A stretch of 64,000 nucleotides of DNA from Phyllobates terribilis (GCF_046119375.1 NW_027362770.1:139376001-139440000), one strand, 5' to 3'; positions 18,485-64,000 are shown, numbered from the stretch's first letter. Notes: generated by a model not told the origin, from the sequence alone. A program made the numbers and translations.

Positions 18485-20559
18485 TTAACCCCTTTGCGAC
18501 CTATGACATATAGGTATGTAGCGCCCCTGAGGGTTCGGTCGCCACAGAGGTATTGCATCTCATCCAGAGGTGTGGTATCTCACTCTCAGGTAAGGAAGGA
18601 GTATGGCTCAGGACCCTAACACTACATCCACTACACCACATTTCCGGGGGACAGGGCGACAATGCTCCTACAGGAGAGCACAACTGTCCCTGATCCCTGG
18701 CTGGAGTGGGGAGGAACCACCTAGAGAGGGGGAACCAGGTAGCGGATGGGTGGAGGACATAGATCCTGGGAGCACTGGAGTAGGAGGTATAAAAGCAAGG
18801 AACCATTTTGGTTAGGGGTTGTTAGCTAGTGAGTAGTGGTGAGGAGAAGTGACAGGAGCAGAGGCTCTGTACGAGCTCTGCTCCACAGGCAGGCCTAGTT
18901 AAGAGGCTTGAGCCTGAAAGGAGAAGAGAGGAAAGGGGAGCAGAACGGCTCCAGGACAGGAACCGAAGGGACCCTAGGGGTACGGGCCGTGCAGCCGCCA
19001 CCCGTACGCCCGCCGCTGCCAGGAGGTAGGGGGGGGTCAGGCCAAGAAGGGGAACTGGATCCCTCAACCAGCAGAGACTACAGGGCTCAACTGGGAACCG
19101 GAGGCTGCAGCACTTTAAGTACAGCAGGCCGCCCACACCAGCCACCAGGAAGGTAGCCACATAGGGCCAGGGGACGGAACACACGTCACCCGCCAAGGCC
19201 CGAGGACACTGGACAGAGGTGCCGCTAGGTGTGAGGTACAAGGAGAGAGGCCAGAGAAAGCTACACAGAACGGGGTCCTGAAAAGTGCTCTGGAGCTACC
19301 TGAGGGTGGACTGAGCCCCTCACTGAGTACGTGTAGCACCCTGAGGATTCGGCTGCTACAGGAGTATTGCACCTCAACCCAGAGGTGTGATATTCCACTC
19401 CCGGGTAAGGAAGGAGTGTGGAACTGAGCTCAGATAGACTGCATGCACTACATACATCCCATTCCAGAGGAGCAGGCCGACGGCACTCCCACTTAGAAAT
19501 GTGCAGGTGCGACCGAGCCTGTTCCTGGCTGGAGTGGGAGGGGGGAGGAACATCCCATGTAGTGTAGGGGCAGATAGGGGGAGCAGTCTGGGTAGTGTTA
19601 GGAGCTCATTGGGTGCTGGTCACCTGAGCTCACACATAGAGGGTGTATATAAGGTGGGCACCATCAAAGATCAGGGTCAGACGCAGAGGACAAGTCAGAT
19701 GCAGAGAGTCAGAAGGAGAGAACAAGTCTTCTGCAGAGGAAGTCAGCCTGCAGCAAGGGAGCAGAGCAGACCTGAGCCTGAAGAGTGAGAGAGTGGAGTG
19801 CAGAAAGACCCAGAGGGGGACAAAGAAGGGACCCAAGAACCCAAATCAGATCACCGGGTGAGGAGTCAGCAGAAGGGTACCGGAACCCAAGCTGGTGGGG
19901 GCAAAGACATTCCCCAGCCAGAGACCGGAGACCGTGGGCAGTGTCTGTCACGGTCACCCACTACATTCACCCTGAAGGCACACCACATGGAGGGTCAGGG
20001 AACCTTAGGCCAAAGGTTGCCCAACAGAAGGCCCGAGGGAGCTGGATTTAGGTGAATCACTGGTGGGGACGGCTGAAGTAAGGACAGAGGGAGAGCTCAG
20101 GGCCACGCTCCGGACTTGTTTGGGGGTTGGCCGGATCCAGGACCTGGTGGACGCAGCACGGCTCGGGAGGTCACTTGGAGCTAGAGTGACCAGGAACATC
20201 TGCAGTAAGTAAAGACCCTTAACTGCACAACCCGAGTCTGTCATCATTACCGGCTGCACCGCACCACCACAACCCCCATCCTCTGCGCCTGTCCCCTCTG
20301 AGGCTATACCCCTCCCGTTGGGGGTTATCCCACCAAGCTGCGCACCTACCATCAGCCTCAGCGGACCCTGCAGCAGCGGCGGCCACAGTGACCGCATCAC
20401 AACGGGTGGCGTAGTCGACAAAACGAACTTTAATAACATCAGTAAAGACTGCCACATAACACTGAGCTTGACGCCCTGGGCACGGGACCGGGTCACAGCC
20501 GCTCGGAGACTACAACCCCCCATCTGATCCGGTGCCGGGTATTCCCCTCAAAAAGGAAT

Positions 20560-22695: not shown

Positions 22696-25600
22696 GTGCG
22701 GCAGAGCAGGAGACTGTATATAGTTGCCTGTCGGGGCACAGTGAATCGAAACTGAAACTGGAACTGTTGTTGCTGCTAAAATAGTCCCCGTTGGGACCAG
22801 CGAACTGTTACCTGTAACCCTTTCCATACCAGGCTGAGGACTGTGAGCAGCCATCCCTTTCCCTTTACCTGGCCGGGGACTGAGAACGGCCAAAGTTTCC
22901 CTGTACATAGTTGCGCTTGCTAAAGCGCCCCCTACCGGTTTTATTTGGGAAACTGTTTTACAAAAGACTGTCGCACTCTACCTGGTCACGAGTTGCACGG
23001 TGACCAGAGGAACAGAAGAGAGAAAGAGACGACGAGAATGTTGTTTACCTGAAAAAGTTTATATATATATTTATATAGTATTTCGTATAATATTTAATAT
23101 GTTTTACATGTTTATAAAAATGTTGTATGTTTTGGTGTTTTTTGTCTTTGCAGCCCGAGGACGTGCTGTGATTTACCAGGGGGGAATGTAGCACCCTGAG
23201 GATTCGGCTGCTACAGGAGTATTGCACCTCAACCCAGAGGTGTGATATTCCACTCCCGGGTAAGGAAGGAGTGTGGAACTGAGCTCAGATAGACTGCATG
23301 CACTACATACATCCCATTCCAGAGGAGCAGGCCGACGGCACTCCCACTTAGAAATGTGCAGGTGCGACCGAGCCTGTTCCTGGCTGGAGTGGGAGGGGGG
23401 AGGAACATCCCATGTAGTGTAGGGGCAGATAGGGGGAGCAGTCTGGGTAGTGTTAGGAGCTCATTGGGTGCTGGTCACCTGAGCTCACACATAGAGGGTG
23501 TATATAAGGTGGGCACCATCAAAGATCAGGGTCAGACGCAGAGGACAAGTCAGATGCAGAGAGTCAGAAGGAGAGAACAAGTCTTCTGCAGAGGAAGTCA
23601 GCCTGCAGCAAGGGAGCAGAGCAGACCTGAGCCTGAAGAGTGAGAGAGTGGAGTGCAGAAAGACCCAGAGGGGGACAAAGAAGGGACCCAAGAACCCAAA
23701 TCAGATCACCGGGTGAGGAGTCAGCAGAAGGGTACCGGAACCCAAGCTGGTGGGGGCAAAGACATTCCCCAGCCAGAGACCGGAGACCGTGGGCAGTGTC
23801 TGTCACGGTCACCCACTACATTCACCCTGAAGGCACACCACATGGAGGGTCAGGGAACCTTAGGCCAAAGGTTGCCCAACAGAAGGCCCGAGGGAGCTGG
23901 ATTTAGGTGAATCACTGGTGGGGACGGCTGAAGTAAGGACAGAGGGAGAGCTCAGGGCCACGCTCCGGACTTGTTTGGGGGTTGGCCGGATCCAGGACCT
24001 GGTGGACGCAGCACGGCTCGGGAGGTCACTTGGAGCTAGAGTGACCAGGAACATCTGCAGTAAGTAAAGACCCTTAACTGCACAACCCGAGTCTGTCATC
24101 ATTACCGGCTGCACCGCACCACCACAACCCCCATCCTCTGCGCCTGTCCCCTCTGAGGCTATACCCCTCCCGTTGGGGGTTATCCCACCAAGCTGCGCAC
24201 CTACCATCAGCCTCAGCGGACCCTGCAGCAGCGGCGGCCACAGTGACCGCATCACAACGGGTGGCGTAGTCGACAAAACGAACTTTAATAACATCAGTAA
24301 AGACTGCCACATAACACTGAGCTTGACGCCCTGGGCACGGGACCGGGTCACAGCCGCTCGGAGACTACAACCCCCCATCTGATCCGGTGCCGGGTATTCC
24401 CCTCAAAAAGGAATATGTCCCAGGGGGCGCGTCATACGCACAGCACGACGAGGGAAGTTATGATCTGCAGTGTAACTTGGAAACTGATAACCGTGAGTAA
24501 AGACCCTGGGACTGCATCACCTTGTCTCCGTGTTTCTTACCGCGCCAACACTCACTGTACTGGGACGCCCCGCACAACCACCATCATTCACCTGCGCTGC
24601 CCTGAAGCTACACTCTTCCTGTGGGGAGTTATACTACACTTGCTGCACATACCACCAGCTTCAGTGGACTGCTCCGCAGCGGCGGTTCTCCATAACCGCA
24701 ATCCACAGGTGGCGTAGTCGGACTATATAACCTATACACATAGACTGCCACTGGTTTGACCGCCCTGGGTCACGGACCTGGTCGCCGCCACGGTGACTAC
24801 TACCCCCAGCATCTACAAGGCCCCGCTCCAGGTGCCCCCCCACGGCCCAGGGGGCGCGTCAGGTACGTCATAGGTCGGTTGCTTCCCCCTGTTTGGTGCG
24901 GGCTCTGGCGATGAGCCTGCATCTTTTCCGGCACATGATCTGATCAACTGTCATGAGCCCCTAACAGCCGCGGATGGAATCACGATCCACCCGTCACTGT
25001 TAGCATGTTAAATGCCGCTGTCAATCTCTGACAGTGGTATTTAACATAGATAAATGTAACCTTCAGCACTCATAAAAGTACAAAAGTTGATGCATGAAGT
25101 GAAAATTTTATTCACAGCCGACACAAAAGTAAACAGATCAAATCCAACGTTTTGGCATATTATTGCCTTTATCAATGTTATCTGTGTCAATATAAGACAT
25201 AACAAAAGATATAATGACAAAATTTTAAAAGACAGATCAAAATAACAAAACAAAAAATCTATATATATAATCGTCTTATCCTGTCTGTCTGTCTGTCTGT
25301 CTGTCCAGGAAATCCCGCGTCGCTCATTGGTCCGGCCGCGGCCAATCAGCGACGCGGGATTTGAGAAAAAGATGGCGGCCGTTAGCGGCTCATCTGCAGG
25401 ACGGAGGTCAGCGGCGATACAACAGGGAGATGACCGGCGCGAGGCGCTCATCTCCCGGCCGCTAGCAGCAGAAGGACCCTGACCGGAGGCGCCACTGACC
25501 TCCATGCGGCTAGGGTGTCAAGGGAGGACCGGGGAGTTGCGTTGCCGGTCGGGATACTTCTGCTGCAAGCAGCCGCTCATCTCCCAGCTTCTCGCAGCGG

Positions 25601-34105: not shown

Positions 34106-35688
34106 GTACTGTTTAAAGACTGCGGTCAGTCACTCCTGCACATCCTCCCTATACGGATGCACCTTTCATATCTTTGTGCAGACCCCCTCAACTCCAGGTA
34201 TGTAAACACCTTCTTGGCTACTCACATTACTGTTGCTGCTTTCTTCTCTTGGTGCTGTCTTGGTTGTTCTTGGTCTTGCATTGGTTCCTCTTCCATACAT
34301 ACATATATATACCATCTCTGGTTTATATCAACCTATGTTAGAGTTTCAGATGAATCCCGTTACTACCTATATGGGTATCCCAGCCTTATATTCATTATGA
34401 CACTTTCTCCTTTTGCTACAGTCTTATCTTTTGTACTTACTCTATGGCTGTTCTAGATTATACATATATTCACACCCGCAAATGTTTCTATTTTTCCATT
34501 TGACTAATAGATATATTTTATGACTACCTATGAAAGTCTGTATATGCATATACGTTTATATGTATATGTATATGTGGCGCCCTGCTGTGCATTGGTGCCA
34601 CAGATCCTAGAGGGGTGCATGGATGGATTCCTCCACAAGAGGCCCCCATAGCATACACACACCTCCACCTTCCTCCTCAGATCACCAGAGGGTGCCCGGA
34701 TAGGGATATAAAAAGGGAAGGTGGAGCTAGGCAGTTCAGTCTAGTCTGTGAGGAGGTCAGTCTGCTGCAGCCAGAGAAGTTGCCAGTCCAGCCTAGACTC
34801 AGGGAGCTCAGGTTATTGAGCCAACAGCGTGCCGACGCCATAAGAGCGGTGAAGAGTAGCGAGGCCTACTGCCAGTGTGAAGCCTAGTTAGGGCCCCGAG
34901 CACGGCCGAAGGCAAGTGGAGTAAGCGAGCTGCATAGGGGGCGGAGGAGCTTAGCCAGCTCACCCCAAGACCATATACCGGACACCGGGTCCGTGCCTGC
35001 TGGGATCTCTACGACCAGCAGAAACTACCGGAACCCCTGGCGAACTACATGTCCCAGGAACACCACAAGCTGACCATTATACCAGGGTCAGGAATCACTG
35101 AGGCCCAAGAGACCAGGGAGTGTGATCTCCAACAGAAGGCCCTACCACCAGGTCAGCAGGTGCAAGACAGAGACTAAGTTAGGCCTAGCTCCAGGCGGGT
35201 CACAAACTTATCAGGAAAAGGCAAGAAACAGGAGGCCCCACACCCCCTCACTGGGGAGAGTCCTGAAATGCACCCTTCACCCTACAGTGCCCTGGATCGT
35301 GCCTGAAACACCACTAGTAAAGGTACTGAAGTGAACTGTCGTGTGTGTGCCTATTCTTCTTCTGACCCGGGTGGGTCCCCTCTGTCCTGCATCCCTTCTC
35401 CTACACTGCCCTGAGGCCCCGCTCCACCTGTGGGGAGCCGCAACAACTAAGCTGCCTGATCACCGGCCTCAGAGGGCTGTAGCAGCGCTGGTGATCCTCA
35501 CCAGATACCACGGGTGGCGTCACCAACTTTTACTATCCCATACACCTTTCCCCCATTATCCATTCCTTGCTTTTTAAGAGTGACCCCAGGGTACGGCCCC
35601 AGGATCCGGCCACAGCGGCATCCCCCAAAACCAACAACAAGGCCCGGGCGCCTAGTCGTCCCCATTCCCTGGGCGCGTCATCTCTTCC

Positions 35689-35707
35689 TGGTGTCACAAA
35701 CAGGATT
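35689..35707 (+). promoter_or_regulatory. Primer-binding site, tRNA-Ser(CGA) type
   Basis: TGGTGTCACAAACAGGATT vs the complement of vertebrate tRNA-Ser(CGA), TGGCGTCACGAACAGGATT (17/19; tRNA sequence from memory). Confidence 0.65.
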
Positions 35708-36068
35708 CCGTGCCCGCTGCAACGATGGAGTGTTCTGCCCGTTGCCACCGGGTACTGTGCGCCTTTAATCAAAAGCTGTGTATTTAACTGTGGCAAAGAT
35801 TGCCGCCATTGTTGTGCCGCCGAGCGGGAAGAAGGGCGTAACTGCGGGAAACTGAGAGGCGTACCTGCTGAAGCGCGCAAAGCCCCAGACACGCCCCACG
35901 CCTCGACGTCAAACCAGGAAGCGCCAGGTCCTGGAAGGAGCGCCGGTGAGTGCTCTGACGTAGGACGCAAGCGACGCAAGGTCCTGAAGAAGACCGTCAC
36001 CTGCAGAGCTGCGGCCTACCGGAAGACAAGAAAAGAAGGTAGGCCACGGTTCGCTAGGGGGCGCCAGA

Positions 36069-37127
36069 ATGTGCGAGGAACAGCACAACGCCGGAGTACT
36101 GGTTAACCGCTCTGATAATCAACCCGCACTCGGTGCCGAGCAGGCCGAAGCAGCCGCTTCACCAGCAGGGCCTGTAACCCCTGTCATACCCATGGCCCTA
36201 CCGTACATCCCTGGAGTGAAGTGGCTCCCCCAGTACAGCGGCAAACCAGATACCATGTCTGGATTTAAATGGAAAATATGCGGTATACTGGACATGTACT
36301 CTATGACAGGCAAGCAAAGAGCCACTGTTGTATTGAGACAAATGACTGGTGCTGCGGAGCGGGAAGTAGAAACTTGGTCGGCCGCAGACCAGGAGTCAGT
36401 GTCCGCCATCTTTAAAAAGTTACAGACTGTCTTTGAGAATCGTACTGAGACAAAATTTCCGGATGAGGTTCTACAACTGCTCTCAGCAAGCGGAGGACAG
36501 TGTTCGGGACTATGCCTGGCGTTTACAAGGGGCCCTGGAGCTCTGAAACAGGTTAGTCCAACCAGCATCAATGATGAAAATAAAATGCTGAAGGAACAGT
36601 TTATCCGGGGACTGAGGTCCCAAGAGGAGAGCAGGACTGTGCGTTGGTGGTCCCTGGATCATCCAGATACCACCTTTGACACCCTTAAGGACATGGCTAT
36701 AAAAGGACTGCAGCCCCAGGAAACAACTGCTATCCAATGTTACCAGGGTGGGGCCACCCCAGTGCCTGTTGCGTCCACCTTTTCCCCGGTGGCTGCTGAA
36801 GCCAAGGTTCCAGCAACGTCCCCTAGTGAGCTGGACAGCCTGCGCTCTGAAGTGCGTCAGCTGAGCAAAACCCTAACCACTGTACTGAGTGCCCTGCAGC
36901 TGCGGACGGAGCCCGAGGAGGAAAGAAGGATCCTGCTAGCCGACAGCCCTGAGGATGTCCCCTGGATGAGAAGGAGGAGGACAACGCCACCCCCTGGGAG
37001 GACCAGCGACCAACGCCGCCCGCCGAGGGACCCTGTCTGCCACCACTGCCACAAGACAGGTCACGCCATCCAGAGCTGTCCTTTAAACGAGAAAACCCTG
37101 GGGCCGAGGGCCGACACCCAGGAGTAG
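36069..37127 (+). pseudogene. Gag of element E (probably frameshifted internally)
   Basis: LPQYSG capsid-like start; LKEQFIRGL; CCHC knuckle CHHCHKTGHAIQSC. Confidence 0.8.
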
Positions 37128-40100
37128 ACCCCCCAGGCCCATCAAACTGGTACCGCAGGTTCGTGGGAGGAAGACCTTACCTGTCCATTGTACTGTACGG
37201 CATCGCAACACCCGCTCTGCTGGACACAGAATCTCAGGTAACCATCATGTCTGATGTCCTCTACAAAAGGTTCTGGTCCATAGACAAACTTCACCCACCA
37301 GATCCAAATCTTTCCGTCTATGCCTCAAACGGCCTTCCCCTTAACCTAGTCGGGGTTAAGGATGTGGCAGTAAAGGTGGGAAGAGTGGAACTGAAGGACC
37401 AGGAACTAATTGTAGTAGAGACTAATCCTGATGATACCAGCTTGTATATGGTACTTGGCACTAATGTTGTTAGTAACTGTTTGGGAGAAGTGTTGTTCTT
37501 GCTCCAACAGATAGCTGACACTGCCAGACCAGGGCAGAGAAGAGCGCTGCAGAAAGAGATCCGAGCCCTTATGTACCAGCAACACGTAAAGCTAACCGGC
37601 GGTGAAATTGATAATGTACGGGTGACAGACCCGGTACCCATTGTGATTCCCTCGATGAGTAAAATGCTGATTTGGTGTAGAGCAGCAATAGGTCTCAAAG
37701 GACGGAGCTACCAGGCGGTAGTAGAGCCCCTTAGCTCGGAACATAGGCCTACACTCTTGACTGCTAGAGGGGTAGTGGATGTACGCAATGGGAGGGTGCC
37801 CGTACGCCTCCTAAACTATGGGGAAGACGAGGTTAGATTACCACGCTACGCCACTGTTGCCAAACTGTACACAGTAAATAACAACTCCATACAAACGGCG
37901 GAGTCCTTAACCTCACCAGACGAAGTGGAGGATAATGACCCGGCCACCCAGGTGGAGGATTGGTGTCAACAGCTCCATGTTGGGACAGACACCAATCCTG
38001 CCCATCAGAAGCAGGGTGTACACCAGGTGGTTCAGGAATATGAGCAGGTATTCAGTAAGCACCCACTTGACTTTGGGAGGATTAAGGGGGTTCAACACCA
38101 TATCCCCACAGGTGACCATCCACCCATCAAAGAACGTTACAGGCCTATACCACCAGCACACTACCAGAAGGCAAAGGAGATGTTGCACGACATGAAGAAG
38201 GCAGGGGTAGTAAGGGATAGTTGTAGTCCCTGGGCAGCTCCCCTAGTTCTAGTCAGGAAAAAGGATGGAAGCATGAGAATGTGTGTAGATTACAGACAAG
38301 TAATTCGCATTACACATAAAGATGCATACCGTTTACCACGTATAGAGGAATCCCTGGCTGCCTTAAAGTCTGCAAATTACTTCTCCACCCTTGACCTCAC
38401 TAGTGGGTACTGGCAAGTAGCCGATGGGACTCTGCGAGTTCAATAGTATGCCGTTTGGACTCTGCAACGCCCCCGGAACGTTCCAGAGATTGATGGAGTG
38501 CTGCCTGGGACACCGCAACTTCGAGACTGTACTACTATACCTGAATAACGTGATAGTGTACTCCAAAACGTATGATGACCACTTGAAGCACCTGGCGGAG
38601 GTATTTGAGTCACTGTCCCGGTATGGGATGAAGCTGAAGCCCTCAAAGTGCCACCTGCTCAAGAGAAAGGTACAGTACCTGGGGCACATCGTTAGTCCAG
38701 AGGGAGTAGCACCAGACCCGGAGAAGGTCACTGCCATCCAGAAATGGCCGGAGCCGAAGAGCCTCAAGGAGGTACGTCAGTTCCTGGTACTAGTCGGGTA
38801 TTACCGGAGGTTTGTGAAGGACTATACCAAGAAAGCGGCACCTCTGCAAGACCTCCTGGTAGGACAGTCCCCCAGAGGCAGAAATCCCCCATTCCAGTGG
38901 GGTAAGGAGCAGGCTGAATCCTTTAATGTGATGAAGGAGATCCTGACCGGCGAAGAGATCCTAGCCTACCCTGACTACAGCCAACCGTTCCTGCTGTACA
39001 CTGATGCCAGCAATGAAGGATTAGGAGCTGTACTGAGTCAGAAGCAGAATGGCAAAGAGAAGGTGATCACCTATGCTAGCAGGAAGCTCCACCCGACCGA
39101 GAGGAACCCAGAGAACTATAGCAGCTTCAAGCTGGAGTTCCTAGCCCTGGTCTGGGCCATCACCGAGCGGTTCAAGCACTATCTAGCCTCCAGTAAATTC
39201 ACTGCCTTCACTGATAACAACTCCTTGACTCATCTGGAGACAGCTAAGCTAGGAGCCATGGAACAACGATGGATGGCTAGGCTGTCAAACTACCAATTCA
39301 CTATTAAGTACCGGGCGGGCCGCAAGAACGCCAACGCCGATGCCCTGTCCAGGATGTCAGACACTGAAGAAGAAGTGGATGACCTGGAGGAGATTGAACT
39401 ACCTGCCTTTCATCAGAATGGGATAGTCCACGAGCAACGAGCCTCCAGGAGGCAACGTGGTAAGACGTTAAACCCCCTGCCTCACCACAGCTGGAAGGAG
39501 ACCCAGGACAGCGAACCGGTTGTCAGCCGTATCAAAGAACTGATAACCCAGGAAGGTTCCTCCCTGGAGAAGGAAGCGTCTCTCCAAGCCAAGCAGCTGT
39601 AGAATGAGAAGAGCCGGTTGTTCATCTATAGAGAGAAACTGTGCCGGAGGTACGTCAACACCAAAACCCAAGAGATGGTATGGCAGATAGTGGTGCCCAA
39701 AACAGACATCCAGATGGTGTTGGAAGCCTACCACGATCAGGCGGGGCACTTTGGCTGGAAGAAGCTAGAAACCCTGCTGAAGTGTCGGTTTTATTGGGTA
39801 GGAATGCGCAGTTCCATTGAGAGGTGGTGCCGGAATTGTGGACCCTGTAGCCTCAGAAGAAAAGACTACAGCAGCCAGAAGGCACCCCTGCAACCCATCA
39901 AGACAACTCGACCTTTGGAGATCGTGGCCCTGGACCATGTCAAGCTGTCACCCAGCAGGTCAGGATATTCCTATGCCCTGACCATGGTGGATCACTACTC
40001 CCGGTTCCTGGTGATCGCCCCCGTCAAGGACCTGATGGCATAAACTGCGGCGAAGACGTTTCAGGCGTACTTCTGCAGGCCCCATGGATACCCGGAGCAG

Positions 40101-41174
40101 GTGCTGACGGATCAAGGCTCAGCCTTTGAAGCCGAATTGTTCAAGGAGTTCTGCCATCTGTACGGGTGTAAAAAGATCCGGACCACACCGTACCACCCCC
40201 AAACCAACGGTCTCTGTGAAAAGATGAATAACATCGTCATCAACCTGCTGAAGACCTTACCACTAGAGGAGAGAAATCAGTGGCCAGACCTACTACCTGA
40301 CCTGGTAGATCTGTACAACCACATACCTGTGAGTTCCACCAATTGTACTCCAGCATATCTCATGCGAGCCAGACCCGGGAAGTTGCCCATGGACCTGGAG
40401 CTTGGTGTAGTAGAACCAGAAGCAGATATGTCCACTGAGGACTGGGACACGACCAGACAGGAGCAGTACAGAAGAGTACAGGCCTGTGTCGAAGACAGTC
40501 TCACTCGGGTGAGGGACAAGCCGGAAGCCCACTACAATAAAAGTGCGCCCGCAGAACCCTTCACACCAGGAGAAGTGGTGTTAAAGAGGAAGAGGAGAAA
40601 TCACAAACTTGATGACCAGTGGGAGAGAGAACCCTACACTGTGTTAAACTCAAGATTTGATAACAAGAAGACCTGTTTGATTAGCAAAGACGGAGGAATA
40701 ACGACTGCAACGGTATCTAGAGACCATGTGAAGTTGTGTCCAGACCTGCTAAAGCCCCAAGAAGAAGTGCCTCTCACCGTACCGGAGGAGCCTAAAGAAG
40801 CAGTACTCCATACTGACTTAGGAGATTTCCCGGCAGATTGGCCTCAACTAGGAGGAGCAGTAATAATCCCTGTGATCCACTTCTTTCAACAGCCAGAAGA
40901 CCCTCCACAGCAAGAAGAGCCTGTAAGTGCTTCAGAAGAGCCTGTTCAAGAAGAATCCCCGGAAGAAGGATCCCCGGTTGGAGCAGAGCAAGAAGGCCCA
41001 GCCAATGGTACACTTGCCAGTCCAATAGAGAGGTTAAGGCAGTTTTACAACCTACCCACACGTAAAACTGACAGGGTAGCAGACAGTGCAGACACAGATA
41101 CCATCCACACTGCCGTACTACGCAGATCGACACGTAGCACACGAGGTCAGACCCCTGTCAGATACAGAGAATAA
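37082..41174 (+). pseudogene. Pol of element E (protease, RT, RNase H, integrase), broken by a deletion/frameshift and stops
   Basis: LLDTES (DTG-like); SPWAAPLVLVRKKDG...VDYR; FSTLDLTSGYWQV; YLNNV (YxDD lost); RH YTDAS...NYSSFKLEFLAL; IN H...H...CRNC, ALDHV, TDQG, LCEKMN. Confidence 0.93.
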
Positions 41175-44100
41175 AGAAAGAAACTCTGACAGTGTAGATA
41201 GTTGCCCTTGGGGTATTATATTGTGTGTTTTCATATATGTATTTATTAACTTGTGTTTTGCTTTATAATGGACAATCTAAGTGAAATGGACACTTTTCTT
41301 GTTTGCCTCTAACTACCCGTCAGGGTACATATAGAACTTTGTGGCTAAGGATGGTGTGCAGCCCAAAAACTGCTTCTTGTAAATAATTGCACTCCCTGGA
41401 GTGCCCCTTTAGGTGACCTCAGAAGAAAAACCTGTCTGGTGTGGCACTAACAGAGGTCCAACTCAGGATCGCCATGCCCTACAGCCACCCCAGGGCCTAC
41501 GTGGAGGGTTTGGGACAGGTCCCTCAAGCTACTAAGTACTCTAACCTGTGAGATGGACATCCTGTTGGAAACCTCACCGAAAGAGACTTGAATTCTGAGG
41601 TTGTTTATCAAATTGTACATATCTGTTTATTATTTATAATGTTTTATATGTAACATTCAAGCAAGTGCCTCCCATAAAGGGAAGAGTTATTATTATTGTT
41701 GTTATAAAAAGTACTTCAGTCCGGGAGTACTGAGCTTTGCTAGGGGGGAATGTGGCACCCTACTGTGCATTGGTGCCACAGATCCTAGAGGGGTGCATGG
41801 ATGGTTTCCTCCACAAGAGGCCCTCATAGCATACACACACCTCCACCTTCCACCTCAGATCACCAGAGGGAGCCCGGATAGGGATATAAAAAGGGAAGGT
41901 GGAGCTAGGCAGTTCAGTCTAGTCTGTGAGGAGGTCAGTCTGCTGCAGCCAGAGAAGTTGCCAGTCCAGCCTAGACTCAGGGAGCTCAGGTTATTGAGCC
42001 AACGGCGTGTCGACGCCATAAGATCGGTGAAGAGTAGCGAGGCCTACTGCCAGTGTGAAGCCTAGTTAGGGCCCCGAGCGTGGCCGAATACAAGTGGAGT
42101 AAACTAGCTGCATAGGGGGCAGAGGAGCTTAGCCAGCTCACCCCAAGACCATATACCGGACACCGGGTCCGTGTCTGCAGGGATCTCTACGACCAGCAGA
42201 AACTACCGGAACCCCTGGCGAACTACATGTCCCAGGAACACCACAAGCTGACCGTTATACCAGGGTCAGGAATCGCTGAGGCCCAAGAGACCAGGGAGTG
42301 TGATCTCCAACAGAAGGCCCTACCACCAGGTCAGCAGGTGCAAGACAGAGACTAAGTTAGGCCTAGCTCCAGGCGGGTCACAAACTTATCAGGAAAAGGC
42401 AAGAAACAGGAGGCCCCACACCCGCTCAATGGGGAGAGTCCTGAAATGCACCCTTCACCCTACAGTGCCCTGGATCGTGCCTGAAACACCACCAGTAAAG
42501 GTACTGAAGTGAACTGTCGTGTCTGTGCCTATTCTTCTTCTGACCCGGCTGGGTCCCCTCTGTCCTGCATCCCTTCTCCTACACTGCCCTGAGGCCCCGC
42601 TCCACCTGTGGGGAGCCGCACCAACTAAGCTGCCGGACCACCAGCCTCAGAGGACTGTAGCAGCGCTGGTGATCCTCACCAGACACCACGGGTGGCGTCA
42701 CAAACTTTTCTTATCCCATACACCTTTCCCCCATTATCCATTCCTTGCTTTTTAAGAGTGACCCCAGGGTACGGCCCCGGGAGCCGGCCACCGCGGCATC
42801 CCCCAAAACCAACAACAAGGCCCGGGCGCCGAGTCGTCCCCATCCCCTGGGCGTGTCATATACAATTATATACATGTATTTTTTATTTTGTTATTTTGAT
42901 CTGTCTTTTCAGATTTTGTCATTATATCTTTTGTTATGTCTTATATTGACACAGATAACATTGATAAAGGCAATATGCTGAAACGTTGGATTTGATCTGT
43001 TTACTTTTATGTCGGCTGTGAATAAAATTTTCACTTTATGCATCAACTTTTGTACTTTTATGAGTGCTGAAGGTTACATTTATCTAAGTATTATCTGCTC
43101 CTTCATAGCACCTTCTTCGTTTTTTGAGTGCTGACACTCTTGACCCTTGATATATAGTGGTATTTAACATACACGCAGCGGAAGGGCGTCATTAGTTCCG
43201 CCCATCGGTGCCCGTCACATGATCGCGGGGTGCCGATGGGTTAACATGACAACTCATGGTCTGCTGAATACCCCAGTGCTTGTGATTGCTGATCTACTAT
43301 GAGCTCCGCCCTGTGGCCGGCTACTGGACAGATGATCATTTCTGCTACACATAGCAGGGCTAAAGACTTGCTATGTGTAGCACAAGCAATTGGATGATCG
43401 CAGCTTCCAGTCTCCTATGCAGACTATTGAAGCATGTAAAAAGTAAAAAAAAAAGTTTTTAAAAACATTAAAAAAATGAAAACATATAAAAGTTCAAACA
43501 ACCGCCCCTTTGCCCCATTCAAAATGAAACAATAAAAAAAATCAAAAATACACATATTTGATATTGCAGCGTTCAGAATCGCCCGTTTTATCAATATATA
43601 AAAATCCTGCACCTACAGTACTTCCTATTCATGTACTTTACCCGTATCCTGCTTTCTCTGCTCTCCATGGCACTGTTTATGCTTTCTCTCTTCTGCTATC
43701 ACTAAGAGACGAGAATAGGAGAGCAGAAAGAGCTGTCAGAACCGGGATTAGGAGCTCTGACAATGTGTAACATTTTGCAGAGCACTCTTGGTACTCATAA
43801 CTTTTAAACTAACTGCATACAATCATACTTGTCAACTTTTCACAACTGAGTCTGGGAGAGGGAAGGATAAAAGATTGAAAAAAGTAAAAGCCAAATTAAA
43901 CCAACAAAGGTCGCACACTTTTGAGAATAGTGGCGCAAGCAGGTGAAAAAGGGACACAAAGCCTCAAATTTTTGCACAAGTATGGACTTAAGTAAAAATG
44001 CGCAACTCGCATATTCTACAGTGGAGAGGGTTACATGCATGATGTTTAACTTTTTGTGGTGCGAATCAGGGAGTAGGTGATCTTACGTGCAACTGATTAT

Positions 44101-51500: not shown

Positions 51501-54134
51501 GACCCCAGGAGCTAAACTACCGAAGTCCAGACTATATAATCTTTCTGGCCCTGAGAGACAAGCCATGAAGGATTTCATTGCGGAAAGTCTGGAGAAGGGA
51601 CATATCAGACCCTTATCTTCGCCCGTTGCGGCAGGGTTCTTCTTTGTGAAGAAAAAAGATGGCGGTCTACATCCCTGTTTAGATTTCCGGGAATTAAATC
51701 AAATTACCATCCGTGATCCATAATCTCTTCCTCTGAATCCTGATTTTTTCTGCTAGGTTGTGGGAGCTAAGGTATTCTCCAAGTTGGATTTAAGGGGAGC
51801 CTACAATCTGGTTAGAATTAGAGAAAGGGAAGAATGGAAAACAGCGTTCAATACCCCGGAAGGACATTTTGAGAGTCTGGTTATGCCTTTTGGTTTGACC
51901 AATGCACCTGCGGTATTCCAGCTTTTCATAAATTATATTTCCCGTCATTTGATGAGGAGGTTTGTGGTGGTTTATCTGGACGATGTTATGGTTTATTCAC
52001 CTGATTTTGAGACACATCGGGGGCATGTTAAGCAGGTGCTCCAGATATTAAGGGATAACAAACTTTATGCCAAACTGGAAAAATGTGTTTTCGTTGTTCA
52101 GGAGGTGCAGTTTTTGGGGTACTTGTTGTCATCTTCGGGTTCTCGGATTGATCCGAAGAAGATCTGTGCAGTCCTTGATTGGGAACTTCCCGAGAACCTG
52201 AAGGCTCTACAACGCTTTCTGGGCTTTACTAATTTTTACCGGAAATTCATCCAAAATTACTCAGTAATTGTGAGACCCCTTACTGACATGACTTAGAAGG
52301 GGTCTCATTTTTCCAAATGGTCAGAAGCCTCCCTCCAGGCTTTTTCTTCCTTAAAGAATCATTTTGCCACTGTTGTACTTATACTCAATCAACCCGATGT
52401 TTCCCAACCCTTTATTGTGGAGGTTGATGCGTCGGATGTCGGGGTTGGGACTGTGTTGTCTCAGGTAAATGGCATCCATGCTCCTTCTTTTCTAAAAAAT
52501 TGTCTTTGGCTGAGAGAAATTATGACGTGGGTAATAGGGAACTTTTGGTGATCAAATTGGCTTTCGAAGAATGGCGACATTGGTTGGAGGAGGCTGTCCA
52601 TCCTATTACTGTTATTACTGACCATAAGAACCTGTTATTTCACAAGTCAGCTAAACGTCTCAACCGTAGGCAAGCCAGATGGTCCCTGTTTTTACTAGGT
52701 TCAATTTTGTTGTCACTTTTCGTCCAGGGGTCAAAAATGTCAAGGCTGATGCTTTTTCCCGGAGCTTCCCTGGGGGTGGTAACCATGAGAACCCAGCCCC
52801 GCTATTACAGAAAGGGGTAATCATTTCGGCACTGTATCTTGAACTGGAGGGTGAGGTGTTGGAGGCTTAGGGGGACGCCCCTGCCTCCTGCCCTTCAGGA
52901 AGGTTACTTGTACCATCTGATCTGTGCCGCAACGTAATTAAGGAACATCATAACTCTGTGCTTGCTTGGCATCCAGGTGATAAGGCAACCGCGGACCTCC
53001 TCTCCCGTCGTTTGTGGTGGTCGGGGTTGAATCGGGATGTGATTGAAAATGTAGCTGCTTGTAGTATTTGTGCGTGTTCTAAGGTTTCGCATACCCGTCC
53101 GTTTGGTACTTTTCTTCCGCTACTTATCCCTAGTAGGCCATGAACACACTTGTCCATGGATTTTATTACTTACCTACTGGTTTCTGCAGGCAAAATGGTG
53201 GTTTTGGTGGTAGTAGATAGGTTCAGTAAAATGGTTCACTTCGTCACATTGCCTGCACTTCCAAATGCTAAGACACTTGATCAGGTGTTTGTAAATGAGA
53301 CTGTGAAGCTTCACGGGGTTCCCTCTGATGTGGCGTCAGACCTAGTTTGTTTCTAAGTTCTGGAAGGCATTCTGTTCTTAACTAGAGATGCAGCTGTCCT
53401 TTTTCTCTGCCTTGCGCCCTCAGTCGAATGGACCGACTGAGTGTGTCAATCAGAATTTGAAGACCTACCTCAGGTGTTTCCGAAAATCAGGAGGATTGGG
53501 CATCCAACTTACCGCTGCCAGAATTTGACATTAATAATCATCATCTAGAATCCACTGGCAGGTCACCGTTCTTCGGTGCATGCGGTTATCACCCACAGTT
53601 TGGTACCTTTAGTGGGGGAGGAGCTTCAGGAGTTCCTGAGGAGGAACGGTTTGCTTCGTCACGCTCCTCGGTATGGCTCTGAGTAATTTAAAGAACAAGG
53701 GAGACAGGTATAAACTTATGGCTGACAGAAAACGCTTGTCATGTCCAGACCTGAATGTGAATGACTTTGTGTGCTTGTCTACCAGAAATATAAAATTGAA
53801 AGTTCCTTCTTGGAAGCTGGGACCTAGGTTTATTTGTCCCTATAAAATAACCGCCGTCATTAACCCAGCAGCGTTTCATTTTGAATTTCCTCAGACCCTT
53901 AAGGTCCAAGTGTTCCATAGGTCCTTACTCAAGAAGTATGTGGAACCTCTTGAGCCCTCACCTCTACCACCACCTCCAGTAATGGTTGACCAATAATGGT
54001 TAATGGTAATCTGAAGTTCCAGATTTTGAGGATTGTAGATTCTCGTCTCCAATGTTGTTCTGTACAATACTTGGTGCACTGGAAAGGCTATGTTCCAGAG
54101 GAGAGGATGTGGGTTTCAGCATCAGAGGTGAATG

Positions 54135-57100
54135 TGTGGTGCCCCTGAGGGTTCGACCGCCACAGGGATGCTGCACTTCTTTAATGGAGTGTAGTTTTCC
54201 TCCTCTGAGGTAAGAACAGTGTGATGGTCAGGACCCAACCTCCACATCCAACACCACACTTCTCCCACCAGAGGGGGCTATTACGCACCAGCTGCTGCCC
54301 CTACTGGAGTTGGGAGAGAGGGGAACCAAGATTTAGGGGAACCAATTAGTGGGTGAGGGTGGAGGATTCACATTTTAGTGACACTTAATAATTCATGTTT
54401 AATCCACAGCCATTTTGGTTCTTGGTTCTTTGACTGTTCTTTATTGTGACTTTCCTCCCTGAGCGTGGATCCTGTGTGGACCTGCAGAGGATGGAGGCAC
54501 GGCCCTCGTACCCTGGCCTTGGGTCGAGGGGCAGGTTGCAGATAATGAATGTCTCAGCCCGGTCAAGGACCATGACCAAGAAGGCCCGGAGTTTAGGAGT
54601 GTAGCTCCACCCAAATGGATCCCAGGGAGGATGCAGACGGAGCGGTATATGCCACCTGTCCTCGCCAACCTGATCTATTCAGAGGGATTCCGGCTGCAAG
54701 AGGGGTACCGACCCCCGACACCTGACCTTGCTACTCCACGTCCTGGTCAGGGAAGTTCGGTAGGCCCTGAGGATCCCACCGGGTATCGGAAGGAGCGGAG
54801 CTGCCACCCGTAGCCTTTTTCTGAGTGAAGTTCAGAGGGAGACCCGGCCTATCTACACACACACAGAAAGGAAAGGACCCGGTCTGAAGTCTAGGAACAC
54901 TCTGGTGCGGGGTCCTGATTGAACACTGGACTTAGTCTGAGGTTGTCGGACCCCCCCGTCTCTGGTGACTGCAGAACTCAGCGAGGAGCAGGGAGATGCC
55001 TTCCTACTGCCATCTCCATCATGAGTAAACAAACCCTGGAAATTAACCCCTATGGCCTCCGGACTCTTTATTCTGCATTACACCACATTACACAGCACCA
55101 GACCTCCTAGACTACTACTTCCTCCATCCTGTCCCTCTGCCCTGAGGCCCTGCTCCGCCTGTGGGGAGTAGTAACAACTATGTCTGCAATAACACCATGC
55201 CTCCGCGGACTGCAGCAGCGCTGGTGGCCTTCACCAGGTGCCACAGGTGGCGTAGTCGAGATCAGCCAATCAGCCACTCAACCCGGACAAGCCCATACCA
55301 TCCTTTTTTTAGTGTGACCACCCTGGGCACGGAGCGGGTCCGGGCCACGGCTGCACCCCATCTACCACACTCGGGTCCCGTCTCCGAGTCCCCCATCTCC
55401 CAGGGTAGGGCTTTCGTGCGCCGCACAAACTGGCGTAGTCGGCAGGATCGCGTGCCTGCAGCAAAGGAAGGAATTACCCATTGCTACCGGGTACTGTGTG
55501 CCTTACACCTTGGACTGTCGTTTTCCACTTAAAATGGCGCCCGCCCTAGAAGAACAGGCGCCATAGTGCATCAGAAACACGGTCTTCTAACACCTCCTAT
55601 CGTGGACCAGGCTCCCACATGGCGCCAAAAGTGCGGACCGCCCCTTCCATCAGAAACTGTCCGCGGGGTAATGCCTGTCAAAATGGATGGGCTGAACGAA
55701 GGCGTGCCTGTCAGCAAACCGCCCTGGAGCCGCCCCGAAAGAGGAGGAAAAAGAAAAACAACAAGGTGCGGCCATTGCAGTTGGAGTTTGGCAACCTTCA
55801 GGAGCGGACATGGACGCTGCTGGAGCGCAACAAACGGAGCCTTCCGAACCCGGCCCAGGTCCTTCCCCCGGCAGGGAGCGAAGCGGCACCAGACTTACAG
55901 CGGGAGATATTGAATTTCTCCCCCAGGAAGCCCCGGGTCTTGCACGGAGACTGGATGAGGCCCAGAAGGCGGCGTCTGCTGCGTGGTGGGAATAAATGCT
56001 GCTGCGCCTCCGGACCCGCCGCCGAGGAGCTGAAGCTCAGGGAGAAGCGGTGACAGAGGTTGTGAGCTGCTCAGAGGCGGGTGAGTGTGTTACCCCTGCC
56101 CCGGCTGCTGAACCTACCGTACCCATACTGAACCTCATGGCCAAGTATCTCCTGCCCGGCGCGGTCACCTGGGAGCAGGTCTTTGCCCCGGAGCTGCAAG
56201 CCTCTGCTATTGGCGGGGACCTGCACTGCCGCCCAACTCCTGAATCGGAAGTACCTGAGGCTGTGGGGGTATCCACCGACCCCAACCCGGACTGGTCCGC
56301 ACTTACAGAGGACCCGCAGCAACCCCTGCTGACACCGCTGCCCACACTAACAGTCACCTGGCCGGCGGCTGAGGAGTGGGCCTGGGACAACCAGGGGGGG
56401 ACCTGATGGGCTTCCCCCGGGAGACTCGGGCTGAAGTGCAGAGGAGGAGCGAGCGGTGCCGTGAGCAGATTCTCCAACTCAGCCGGGAGCAACGCCAGAG
56501 GGAAATCCGCTGCGAACGCCTCGAGGTGCGGGTCAAGGCTGCAAAATCCCGGGCCCGACAGGAGGAAGCTACCCGTCCAAGCCCCCGTGTGGAAGGGCAA
56601 GTTGTCCGCTTCCACCATGAGGTGGGGTGGGGGTTCATAAGGAGTTCCCAGTATCAGGACGACATCTTTGTCAGCAGGCGGGACGTCGAGCCGCGGCTGA
56701 AAAAGGGACACCCTGGCCGGAACCTCTTCCCGGGTGACGTAGTTACTTACACCCGCCACCATGGGGTGCGGGGGTGGTACGCCCTGGATGTCCACAAGGT
56801 GTCCGGTAGCGACGCCCCACACGCTCAGCCTCAGAGGACAGGTCAGCCTCTGTCGGGAGGAATGAGCCTTTTCCCAGGAGGGAACCCGAGAGTTAAGCAG
56901 CCCCGGAGGCTGTAACTTGTTTAAAGTTGTTTAGTTCATGTTTATGGTTTAAATTACATTCCCGGTTTCTAGAGACATTGGTCCCTGCGGACTTTCAGCA
57001 GACAGACTCCTTACTTGTAAATAATTTGCATCTCTTTAGGTGCTCCTTATTGGTTTTATGTGAAACCGCGGATATTTCTACCTCAGACCTCGGAAGAAAA

Positions 57101-58728
57101 ACCTGTCTGGAGTGGCTCTCCTGGAGGTCCAACTCGGGATCTTCATGACCTGCAGCCACCCCAGGGCCCACGTAGGGGGTTTGGGACAGGTCCCTCGCGC
57201 TTCTGAACTGAATCTTCGTCCTTACACTTTAATCAGTCTGTCTGTGCATAAATGTCTAATGATAATTCTAGCACTTTTATATTTTTATACCTTTGTACTT
57301 TTAAATTATTATATTCTGTTTGAAACGTTTAAGAAGAAGTGCCTCCCAAAAAGGGAAGATCGTTTACTGTTTATATAAAAAGAAAAACTGTACCAGGTAT
57401 TGCTCTTTTGCAGCCCGCGGACGTGCTGTGTTTCACCAGGGGGGAATGTGGCGCCCCTGAGGGTTCGGCCGTCACAGGGATGCTGCACTTCTTTAATGGA
57501 GTGTAGTGTTCCTCCTCTAAGGTAAGAACAGTGTGATGGTCAGGACCCAACCTCCACATCCAACACCACACTTCTCCTACCAGAGGGGGCTATTACGCAC
57601 CAGCTGCTGCCCCTACTGGAGTTGGGAGAGAGGGGAACCAAGAGATAGGGGAACCAATTAGTGGGTGAGGGTGGAGGATTCACATTTAGTGACACTTAAT
57701 AATTCATATTTAATCCACAGCCATTTTGGTTCTTGGTTCTTTGACTGTTCTTTATCATGACCTTCCTCCCTGAGCATGGATCCTGTGTGGACCTGCAGAG
57801 GATGGAGGCACGGCCCTCGTACCCTGGCCTTGGGTCAAGGGGCAGGTTGCAGATAATGAATGTCTCAGCCCGGTCAAGGACCATGACCAAGAACGGCCGG
57901 AGCTTAGTAGTGTAGCTCCACCGCAAATGGATCCCAGGGAGGATGCAGACGGAGCGGTATACGCCACCTGTCCTTGCCAACCTGATCTATTCAGAAGGAT
58001 TCCGGCTGCAAGAGGGGTACCAGCCCCCGACACCTGACCTTGCTACTCCACATCCTGGTCAGGGAAATCCGGTAGGCCCTGAGGATCCCACCGGGTATCG
58101 GAAGGAGCGGAGCTGCCACCCGTACCCTTTTTCTGAGTGAAGTTCAGAGGGAGACCCGGCCTATCTACACATACACAGACAGGAAAGGACCCGGTCTGAA
58201 GTCCAGGAACACTCTGGTGTGGGGTCCTGATTGAACACTGGACTTACTAGGAGGTCTCGGACCCCCCCGTCTCTGGTGACCACAGAACTCAGCGAGGAGC
58301 AGGGAGACGCCTTCCTACTGCCATCTCCATCATGAGTAAACAAACCCTGGAAGTTAACCCTTATGGCCTCCGGACTCTTTATTCTGCATTACACCACATT
58401 ACGCAGCACCAGACCTCCTAGATTACTACTCCCTCCATCCTGTCCCTCTGCCCTGAGGCCCTGCTCCGCCTGTGGGGAGTAGTAACAACTATGGCTGCAA
58501 TAACACCATGCCTCAGCGGACTGCAGCAGCACTGGTGGCCTTCACCAGGTGCCACAGGTGGCGTAGTTGAGATCAGCCACTCAACCCGGACAAGCCCATA
58601 CCATCCTTTTTTTAGTGCGACGACCCTGGGCACGGAGCGGGTCCAGGCCACGGCTGCACTCCATCTACCACACAGGACCCGTCTCCGAGTCCCCCATCTC
58701 CCAGGGTGGGGCTGTCATGCGCCGCACA
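54135..58728 (+). mobile_element. Non-autonomous LTR element 'C' encoding a (now frameshifted) cold-shock-domain protein
   Basis: LTRs 54135-55427 and 57447-58728; TSD AATG; PBS TGGCGTAGTCGGCAGGAT at 55431-55448; PPT AGGGGGGAA; no gag or pol. Confidence 0.93.
55566..56915 (+). pseudogene. CSD-protein gene of element C (homologue of 20560-22695)
   Basis: PPIVDQAPTWRQKCGPPLPSETV matches B PPIVGQDRKWRQKWKPPPPTETV; WD..G/DLMGF..ETRA block with a frameshift at the G7 run 56394-56400; CSD at 56589-56801 is 36/71 identical to B. Confidence 0.88.
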
Positions 58729-59438
58729 AATGCTCCCAGGTTGGTTCGTTAATTCCACACCCCTTATCCTGAGAAACCCGGTCCTGAATGTCTGGAGGCC
58801 ACTCGTAGAGGGGGGGCACTGTCACGGGTGTTTCAGAAGTGACAGACAGTCGTCCTGCAGTGGATTGCATGAGATCTCTACATTTGGCATTGGAGGCACC
58901 TTCTTAGAGGCTGTCTCTAGGACCCAGTGGCTACCTTCCTCTGGCTAATTAACACCTTGGCCTGGGTGTATAAATACCTGCTGTGTTCCAGAGGGAGGTG
59001 CCGGTGATATTCATTCCTCCGTTTCAAGGCTTTAGCAAGAGCAGTACTTCTTCCTCTCTGGTGCCTGAGGACATGTGCGCATTTGTCTGGCGTCATCTAA
59101 AGCTAAGCTATTTCCCCCTGTTTGTCCTCCCTTGTTGTCTAGCCTTAGGCGCCAGGGAAAGACAGGACGAGGAACGCGTGCGGTGATTTGTGAAGAGCCA
59201 ATATAGGGACGTTAGGGGAGACAGGGTGATATTCTATCAGCCAGGAGGTCTCCACTCCCCCCTTTCCCTAGAGTCTGGGCTTCCTTTCCCTCTTCCCTTT
59301 GTGTGGCACTAAGTCTTTCCCACACCTTGCTTAACAGTTATGCACCCATTATTTAATGTATATGGTCCTCCTCACCAAGTTAATGTTTAGTTAAAGACTG
59401 TTTATATTTGACTGGTGGTCTCCATCATTGATCTTCTT

Positions 59439-62164: not shown

Positions 62165-64000
62165 TGTAGCACCCTGAGGATTCGGCTGCTACAGGGGTAT
62201 TACACCTCAAGCCAGAGGTGTGGTATTCCACTCCCGGGTAAGGATGGAGTGTGGAACTGAGCTCAGTTAGCTGCATGCACTACACACATCCCATTTCCGG
62301 GGAACAGACCGACGGTACTCCCACCAGTTTATGTGCAGGTACGATAGTGTCTGTTCCTGGCTGGAGTGGGAGGGGGGTGGAACATCCCAGTAGTGTAGGG
62401 GCAGATAGGGGGAGCAGTCTGGGTAGTGCTAGGAGCTCATTGGGTGCTGGTCACCTGAGCTCACACATAGAGGGAGTATATAAGGTGGGCACCAACTTAG
62501 GACAGGGTCTTTTGCAGAGTGAGGTCAGTCTGTCAGAGCAGAGGAGAAGAGCAGCTCCAAGGCCAAGAGAGAGAGAGGAGAAAGAAAGACCCAGAGGGGG
62601 AGAAAGAAGGAACTCCAAGAGCCCAAATTAGACCAGAGGGTGAAGAGTTGGCAACAGGGTACCGGATCCCAAGCTGGCAGAGGCTACAGCACACCTTAGC
62701 CAGGAACCGGAGGTCGTGGGCAGGATCGATCTGCCACGATCACCCACTAAATGCACCCGGAAGGCAGACCAGGAATAGGGTCAGGGAACCCAGAGACAAG
62801 GGTTTACCACCAAGAGGCCCGAGGGAGCCGGACATAGGTGGATCCCTGGTGGGGAAGGCCAGAGAAGAGGACAGGACAGAAAGGGAGCTCAGGACCACGC
62901 TCCAGAATCACCTGGGGGTTGGCTGAGTCCAGGACCTGGTGGACGCAGCACGGCTCGGGTGGTCACTTAAGGCCGGAGTGACCAGAACAACTGCAGTAAG
63001 TAAACAAACCCTGAACTGCACAGCCCGACTCTGAGTCTCATTTCCACCCTCGCTGCACCACCACAACCCCCATCCTCTGCAACTGACCCCCTGAGGCTAT
63101 ACCCCTCCCGTTGGGGGTTATACTACCTGAGCTGCACATACATCACCAGCCTCAGCGGACCCTGCTGCAGCGGCGGCCGTACTGACCGCAATTCAACGGG
63201 TGGCGTAGTCGACACAAAAGAACATCTAGTAACATCATAAGGACTGCCACACACTGAGCTTGACACCCTGGGCACGGACCGGGTCACAGCCACTCGGAGA
63301 CTACAACCCCCATCTGATCCGGCTCCGGGTATCCCTAACAGCACTGGCCCAGGGGGCGCGTCAACTTTGGCGTAGTCGGCAGGATAACGTGCCCGCAACA
63401 ACCGGGTACTGCGTGCCTGAAGAAAAGTACACCGTTACCTCAAAAAGAAGTCTCCTGCCGGTTCCGGAGGGTCCCCGCCATCGGGCCCCATCACAGGTCG
63501 TTTCCCGCCGGTTGTCCGCCATTTACAGCTTTTTCCCACCATCCATGGAGTTTCCCGCCACTGGGAGACGATTCCCGCCATTTCCGAAGATTTCCCGCCT
63601 TGGAAGAGTGGACGCCATTATGGGCGTGCCAGAGGGTGGCAAGAGGTCACCTCCCATCGTGGGCCAGGTCGAAGAATGGCGCCAAAAGCGGAAACCGCGC
63701 CCACCAACAGAGACTGTGATGCTGGAAGTGTCCATCAGCGTGAGGGAACTGCCCCTGGAACTGAAGTTGCCCCGGGACCACCCTCAATGTGGGCGGAGAC
63801 AGAACAAGAGAACAAAGATGGGTGTCGCCTGGAGCAGTCTGGAGAGAGCGCACCCGGAGACAAGACGTCTGGAAGAGAGTCCAGAGAGAGAGCACCCGGA
63901 GACAAGACGTCTGGAGGGAGAGTCAGGCAGCACCGACCCAGTGGTCAGGAGCCTGTTGCAGGTCGCCACTCCAGAAGGCCTGCTGGAGATCCTAGCACAG
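62165..64000 (+). mobile_element. Element 'D', a relative of B, truncated by the window end
   Basis: 5' LTR 62165-63363 homologous to the B LTR; PBS TGGCGTAGTCGGCAGGAT at 63368-63385; leader collinear with B. Confidence 0.92.
63620..64000 (+). CDS. N-terminal 127 codons of the B-like protein (open to the window edge; CSD predicted downstream)
   Basis: Hand translation MGVPEGGKRSPPIVGQVEEWRQKRKPRPPTETVMLEVSISVRELPLELKLPRD...KMGVAWSSLERAHPE...STDPVVRSLL...LEILAQ is collinear with B. Confidence 0.85.
   Translation, partial: MGVPEGGKRSPPIVGQVEEWRQKRKPRPPTETVMLEVSISVRELPLELKLPRDHPQCGRRQNKRTKMGVAWSSLERAHPETRRLEESPEREHPETRRLEGESGSTDPVVRSLLQVATPEGLLEILAQ

Follow-up and report, generated by a model that had tools for sequence, protein, structure and literature searches.

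Why would a long terminal repeat (LTR) retrotransposon that has neither gag nor pol carry a cold-shock domain (CSD) of host type, and keep it? This question is raised by an element at positions 54135-58728 of a 64,000-nucleotide stretch of the poison frog Phyllobates terribilis (GCF_046119375.1, NW_027362770.1:139376001-139440000; hereafter the window, with all features given on its plus strand). A preliminary description of the window had assigned this element to a second family of CSD elements, C, beside family B, and had argued that the domain is under long-term selection. We found that the CSD is indeed kept under strong purifying selection across the element lineages, and it was likely captured only once, from a host Y-box (YBX) mRNA.

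By every feature that we tested, 54135-58728 is a non-autonomous Ty3/Gypsy LTR retrotransposon. It is bounded by paired LTRs of the TG...CA type (5' LTR, TGT...ACA, 54135..55427; 3' LTR, 57447..58728) that are identical at 1224 of 1280 positions (95.6%; Kimura two-parameter distance [K2P] 0.045), and a short target site duplication, AATG, lies on either side (54131..54134 and 58729-58732). Between the LTRs follow a primer-binding site (PBS, 55431..55448) that is common to B, E, H and the autonomous family D2 and that we take to be primed by tRNA-Ser, a 5' leader (55449..55809), a single open reading frame (ORF) with a likely start ATG (55810..56915; broken in this copy), a 119-nt block of the 3' untranslated region (UTR; 57086..57204) and a polypurine tract (PPT, 57438..57446). 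Within the ORF, a DLMGF motif with a charged block, helix-like and constant in length (63 aa, 56400..56588), precedes the CSD (71 aa, 56589..56801), which is predicted to form a five-strand barrel. Pfam and similarity comparison detected no gag or pol in the element, while some of its cis sequences are common with an autonomous family (see below). A gag origin of the ORF itself was rejected, with a best E-value of 2.1 against helper-type Gag and no match to any Pfam gag family. The copy interrupts an older Gypsy element of chromovirus type (about 49377-59322) in its chromodomain region. The first ten bases of the PBS are also repeated within LTRs, about 180 nt from the LTR end, at window positions 55248, 20407, 24262, 63201, 4511 and 24710.

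The CSDs of C and B are identical at exactly 36 of 71 positions, as originally reported, and the DLMGF-helix block is kept as well (61/137 in a BLASTP alignment including that block, E 5e-31). C and B alone are close to saturation (dN 0.48, dS 1.85). Across 16 copies of B, C and the related families E and K, omega (dN/dS) is 0.110 for the CSD, with a log-likelihood (lnL) of -1864.8 vs -2020.9 at an omega of 1, and 0.182 for the helix block, where the fit is likewise far better than at 1. A positional sample, composed of loci chosen by position along one chromosome (30/40 usable) and stripped of the codons of the search motif, gave 0.073 for the CSD, 0.147 for the helix and 0.304 for the linker, so that dN/dS spans 0.07-0.11 for the CSD and 0.15-0.18 for the helix block. 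The CSD of mini family F combines a dN of 0.11-0.17 with a dS of 0.68-2.4, and pairs from groups H and J show a similar pattern. Values far below 1 in these sets, together with the one shared origin, support the earlier view that this is not a one-off captured gene decaying neutrally. Between B subfamilies (window 20719-22695 vs L255, L101 and L100), dS is 1.1-1.9 around the helix and the start of the CSD and 0.3-0.8 in the linker, as would fit either modules exchanged among the subfamilies or a constraint hidden in the linker.

Within family C, we sampled 39 copies by a search with the non-coding 3' UTR instead of protein similarity, and the selection test used 37 copies after three near-duplicates had been dropped. 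CSD variants present in at least 3 copies comprise 13 nonsynonymous and 21 synonymous changes (dN/dS 0.20) or, without CpG sites, 5 and 15 (0.11, p 3e-6), whereas private variants have a dN/dS of 0.70 (0.66 without CpG; Fisher p for shared vs private 0.002 and 0.0008). The corresponding ratios were 0.59/0.43 in the linker and 0.62/0.71 in the UTR control, not significant. A low ratio of shared and a higher ratio of private variants is what results when selection acts on lineages as they replicate and copies decay once inserted.

Family C is an older, decaying family. The greater age of the window copy relative to B had been proposed before and is borne out by the LTRs, with 1224/1280 identical positions in C and 1248/1248 in B; an LTR pair was found for 26/39 C copies, at K2P distances of 0.020-0.091. 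The likely start ATG is present in 28/32 covering C copies, and 4/32 are open from the ATG through the CSD. In the window copy, the ORF is broken by a stop at 55993 that is private (TAA in 1/33 covering copies) and by a frameshifted tail. The loss of a single G at 56394-56400, previously listed as one of its frameshifts, is real insofar as the run is one base below its modal state; the segment measures 21 nt in 20/36 covering copies, 20 nt in 10, more in 5 and less in 1, and the loss is therefore shared or recurrent and not unique to this copy. The same shift before DLMGF was seen in a copy of family K (L092), marking a slippage hot spot across families. The copy of family B in the window (19332..24434) has identical LTRs, the target site duplication TACG and a 749-codon open frame that ends in the helix-CSD block. 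Family B is young, since all 150/150 scored matches to this block are 100% identical; an annotated P. terribilis protein is 99% identical to the block. A copy of the B-like subfamily B7 (62165..64000) extends beyond the window end, and the CSD of this subfamily is seen in L255. Element B is covered in four contig runs, whose type is not recorded and which are no evidence for or against expression. Further LTR pieces related to CSD elements lie at window positions 18516-19331, 4296-4653 and 24496-24861, and B apparently sits within one of them.

One part of the preliminary description did not hold. The PPIV..WRQK block had been read as a conserved N-terminal protein motif, but it is absent from the C protein: the underlying block (55593-55637) lies in the 5' leader outside the C reading frame, and 30/39 C rows show it in a frame other than that of the linker. 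It appears to be in frame with the CSD in the window only because the frame offset and the G loss cancel each other. C either lacks the ATG that stands ahead of the block in B, E and K or has it in a different frame from the block, the three codon positions are equally conserved, and dN is about equal to dS (0.146/0.151 for B vs B7, compared with 0.083/1.84 for the CSD of the same pair). A related block even occurs in the non-coding leader of mini family F, outside any ORF. We therefore rejected a protein motif on grounds of frame mismatch, equal dN and dS, and occurrence outside ORFs. PPIV..WRQK is a nucleotide-level leader element, and 55593-55637 is likely a cis packaging or priming signal.

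The identity of the protein rests on its domain. The C domain scores 28.8 bits against Pfam CSD (PF00313; cut-off 27), with 35.8 bits also scored, and a structure prediction yields a confident five-strand barrel (pLDDT 93.6) that matches Csp and YBX structures in Foldseek (E 8.6e-7). Judged by the nucleic-acid contact residues of YB-1 named in the excerpted text of PMC7498358, the element CSDs keep part of the YBX binding face (F74 in 23/25, an aromatic residue at 85 in 25/25 and at 72 in 21/25, a basic residue at 118 in 17/25) and have newly conserved aromatics at 120/121 and arginines at 88/89, nearby in sequence. This pattern suggests a binding face that was rebuilt rather than decayed. The combination of W65 and H87 that marks Y-box proteins is lacking: the element CSD, likely derived from YBX, is not a YBX member. 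The 134-aa helix-CSD block aligns without gaps in 16/19 copies of B, E, K and C that were tried, in a search for stop-free blocks that allowed only a few residues of length slack. Its helix part has few large hydrophobic positions and an excess of opposite-charge over like-charge pairs (159 vs 116), so that a coiled coil is not evident.

Did B and C acquire their domains separately? This outcome, which would have spoken against long-term selection, did not occur; they have one origin. C and B share a colinear 134-aa block with a helix not found in the host, as well as leader, PBS and PPT. In a tree of 37 domains (25 element rows plus host YBX, host CSDE1 and unnamed outgroups), all 25 element CSDs lie on one side of a branch (support 95/91, 98% of bootstrap trees), and this clade takes in about ten element groups as well as proteins of Ranitomeya and Anomaloglossus. 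A clade of C with YBX is disfavoured (approximately unbiased [AU] test, p 0.035), and a tree forced to unite the elements with YBX scores slightly higher (lnL +2.6) and is not rejected (p 0.61). Searched with a profile of 18 element CSDs, YBX1/2 score 51 bits without gaps, bacterial Csp 42, Lin28 20 and CSDE1 17. The host YBX domain is split by introns and the element CSD has none, so that capture through an mRNA fits. As for other host-like sequences, a trio of tandem decayed CSD frames without an LTR pair (group G: L071, L112 and L113; G000:C4:791.48-791.52 Mb) carries the His of host domains at the RNP2 position; it was rejected as a donor gene because it nests inside the element clade as a decayed local duplication. 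Loci L061-L066 (G000:C1:734.44 Mb) are a rearranged, partly duplicated processed CSDE1 copy, and L081 is a decayed processed Y-box copy.

The elements are abundant and diverse. A degenerate CSD motif has 26,992 matches in the 10.57-Gb assembly and none when reversed, putting the group at no fewer than 27,000 copies; H, C and J copies are repeated in large tandem or segmental arrays (G000:C1:1075-1078 Mb, C37, C84 and other contigs), which inflates copy counts. A pair of direct repeats flanks 35 of the 40 loci in the positional sample (in a few cases the pair may belong to an outer element), and none of the 35 has gag or pol between the repeats. The repeats are at least 99% alike in 23 of these 35 loci, 21 of which have frames of at least 500 codons. 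Counting C as a second family was too low, as about ten element groups were found; Pfam and distant-member searches added E, K and mini family F, and also another large branch made up of H, I, J, G and M. Groups for which the two LTRs could be located (B-like, E, F, K and H, and J in part) have one layout in common, with the CSD carried by a single ORF. Mini family F (L083, L070, L085, L093, L095) has its ATG directly before the CSD, little beyond it and no DLMGF-helix; its PBS is another variant, similar to the one in D-type elements. Related annotated proteins, known as proteins alone, exist in Ranitomeya variabilis, R. imitator and Anomaloglossus baeobatrachus. A search of protein representatives gave 144 matches (of 8 looked up, 5 were dendrobatoid-frog proteins and 3 unnamed multi-CSD proteins), and word-index protein searches returned 1, 1 and 0 proteins. 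The ESM Atlas yielded only bacterial CSD clusters (0.87-0.91), though these libraries are poor in transposon proteins and their silence on a range beyond dendrobatoid frogs is weak evidence.

How could such elements be copied? Autonomous Gypsy families that have sequences in common with them are putative helpers. The candidate helper of C, K and F is the family of element D in the window (34572..42859; gag, protease, reverse transcriptase [RT], RNase H and integrase, but no CSD). D and these families have U5 and the 119-nt 3' UTR block in common, the block being 85% identical between C and D (41415-41533) and present in K and F; C also has part of the leader in common with D, and the 3' part of its 5' LTR (55120-55253) is 78% identical to the D LTR. 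B, B5 and E are instead similar to the second autonomous family, D2, in U5, PBS and leader (about 70% over 400-500 nt). D2 was seen in a young copy (L379, G000:C1:16207023-16214900) with 99.2% identical LTRs, long gag and pol frames and no CSD, and its gag is PNMA-like (Pfam PNMA, E 4e-5, below cut-off). J has LTR sequence in common with a third autonomous family, and in one chimera (L155, G000:C3:193026665-193033000; 1/30 copies) the reading frame of gag-pol continues past integrase into a CSD region of J type, possibly by a template switch between co-packaged RNAs. The idea suggested by L155 that the CSD is a C-terminal integrase extension was rejected; the chimera is a one-off, with a CSD within 1.5 kb of that pol family in 1/30 copies and within about 4 kb in 0/13, and with pol near 1/30 J loci, so that autonomous elements here do not include the CSD. 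Element D also has a weak dUTPase-like Pfam match between protease and RT (37640-37910; E 0.005, below cut-off). Elsewhere in the window, a chromovirus-type element at 13010-16222 with 99% identical LTRs and a 1070-codon frame (gag, protease, integrase and chromodomain, no RT match) reads as an internally deleted form.

Taken together, we think it reasonably probable that the CSD elements are an old and still-spreading non-autonomous Gypsy-type group whose protein, captured once from YBX, binds the element's own RNA in cis and favors its copying by a helper's Gag-Pol. The predicted CSD protein would bind its own transcript, RNA rather than DNA, during translation; once bound, it might protect, mask or chaperone this RNA, and the share of element RNA in helper particles would rise. 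The DLMGF-helix would be an optional spacer or adaptor, and in F the predicted nucleic-acid-binding domain suffices nearly alone. Tens of thousands of copies with a dN/dS near 0.1 on many lineages argue that the protein favors the RNA that made it, since a freely trans-acting product would get defective RNAs copied just as efficiently, and dN/dS could not then stay that low. A bolder form of this account is somewhat less likely than not: a satellite-like lineage without Gag and Pol that, with its own YBX-derived RNA-coat protein acting in cis, outcompetes its helper in packaging or escapes germline silencing, has been tied to three or more autonomous Gypsy families, by following them or by switching among them, from a time before Phyllobates, Ranitomeya and Anomaloglossus split, and helped to build the giant genomes of poison frogs.

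Several observations weigh against the cis-acting, YBX-derived protein. In the free tree, YBX is not the sister of the elements, a grouping that is not rejected when imposed, and the structure search places bacterial Csp as high as YBX. W65 is kept in 0/25 and H87 in 2/25 element CSDs, and the protein may therefore have another ligand. Method bias may account for some of the within-family signal, given the ratios of 0.62-0.71 (not significant) for shared variants in the UTR control, and private CSD variants are also somewhat below neutral (0.66-0.70; 0.81 with kappa 4). Copies entered the cross-family sets after filtering for a block that had no stop and a suitable length, just 4/32 C copies are open from ATG through CSD in a decaying family, and the L155 chimera could also have arisen by insertion and then deletion.

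It is less likely, though far from implausible, that the protein instead works in trans as a counter-defense or promoter factor that blocks host silencing or RNA decay, competes with host YBX or binds LTR DNA, to the benefit of element and helper. The altered binding face would suit such a role, as would a selected, fixed-length DLMGF-helix module that could recruit a partner, and excerpted literature reports that the YB-1 CSD binds single-stranded DNA (PMC7498358) and that Gypsy RNA is abundant in Oophaga ova (PMC6278860). Yet a good shared among about 27,000 copies invites cheaters, whereas 21/23 young copies keep long frames; omega is low in many subfamilies, and F has dropped the helix module. 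Domestication of a few master loci under host selection, with the dispersed copies as passive products, strikes us as improbable: the low-copy G trio, which lacks an LTR pair, falls within the element clade and some copies are annotated as genes, but that trio is decayed and carries stops and shifts, LTRs are near-identical in many divergent subfamilies at the same time, and the cis blocks track two different autonomous families. We give very little credence to the idea that selection maintains nothing more than an open frame or an RNA structure, for instance as a way to avoid decay, and that the protein itself is inert. The leader block does prove nucleotide-level constraint and the linker omega is also below 1, but synonymous sites of the CSD diverge freely (dS 0.6-1.9) while residues stay, omega drops from 0.30 to 0.07 towards the CSD and the modeled fold seems kept (pLDDT 93.6); the free dS and the omega gradient largely refute this idea. 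Independent capture of different host CSD genes by B and C, or by B-like and H/J-like groups, is hardly credible, because despite H and J having no detectable nucleotide similarity to B, C, E, F and K, and J seeming tied to the third autonomous family, the 25 element CSDs occupy one side of a single branch (95/91, 98% of bootstrap trees), share derived residues absent from host domains and, for C, resist grouping with YBX (AU p 0.035).

Non-autonomous elements are usually viewed as protein-free parasites or gag remnants, yet tens of thousands of them here keep a host-type RNA-binding domain with dN/dS near 0.1 on many lineages. It thereby becomes possible to test by what route a retrotransposon parasite reaches the machinery of its helper and what form cis preference takes in an LTR element. 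At about 4.9 kb per copy, the 26,992 motif matches would amount to about 130 Mb or about 1% of the assembly, not counting solo LTRs and groups H, I and J. They are a named piece of the unclassified repeats that make up 62.6% of reads in a P. terribilis study (excerpted text of PMC12208295), and they serve as a warning that thousands of apparent "CSD genes" in these frog genomes are mobile elements. Literature searches brought up no paper describing a CSD in an LTR element, though Repbase or Dfam entries and supplements may already hold these families; in the retrieved portions of PMC6278860, PMC12822217, PMC12208295 and PMC4585706, "cold shock" occurs 0 times.

Among known systems, the element CSD is most like YBX1/2/3, its best sequence match (gap-free over 68 residues) with the same fold and with F74, F85 and the basic residue 118 kept. 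It differs in the loss of W65 and H87, the new W/Y at 120/121, the lack of introns, its mobility and its position at the C-terminus, after a Pro/Ala-rich linker and the helix. The proposed working resembles that of LINE-1 ORF1p, in which a helical part and an RNA-binding domain coat the element's own RNA with cis preference, though LINE-1 is an autonomous non-LTR element and uses an RRM, not a CSD. Like the CSD elements, mammalian MaLR and plant LARD and TRIM elements have LTRs, PBS and PPT without pol and are moved by an autonomous partner; MaLR ORFs are gag-derived and LARD/TRIM interiors non-coding, and we know of none with a host-type RNA-binding domain under purifying selection. The PNMA-gag Ty3/Gypsy elements D (window) and D2 (L379) have the PBS type, U5, and leader or 3' UTR blocks in common with the CSD elements but encode gag-pol and no CSD. 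Finally, the Xenopus elements 1a11 and xretpos are likewise single-ORF LTR elements of frogs and are active in the early embryo; 1a11, with 20-30 ORF copies, codes for a Gag-like protein of 71 kDa, and xretpos has about 15 ORF copies (excerpted text of PMC4585706). Set beside them, the CSD elements stand apart by an ORF without similarity to helper Gag, by its CSD end and by their at least 27,000 copies.

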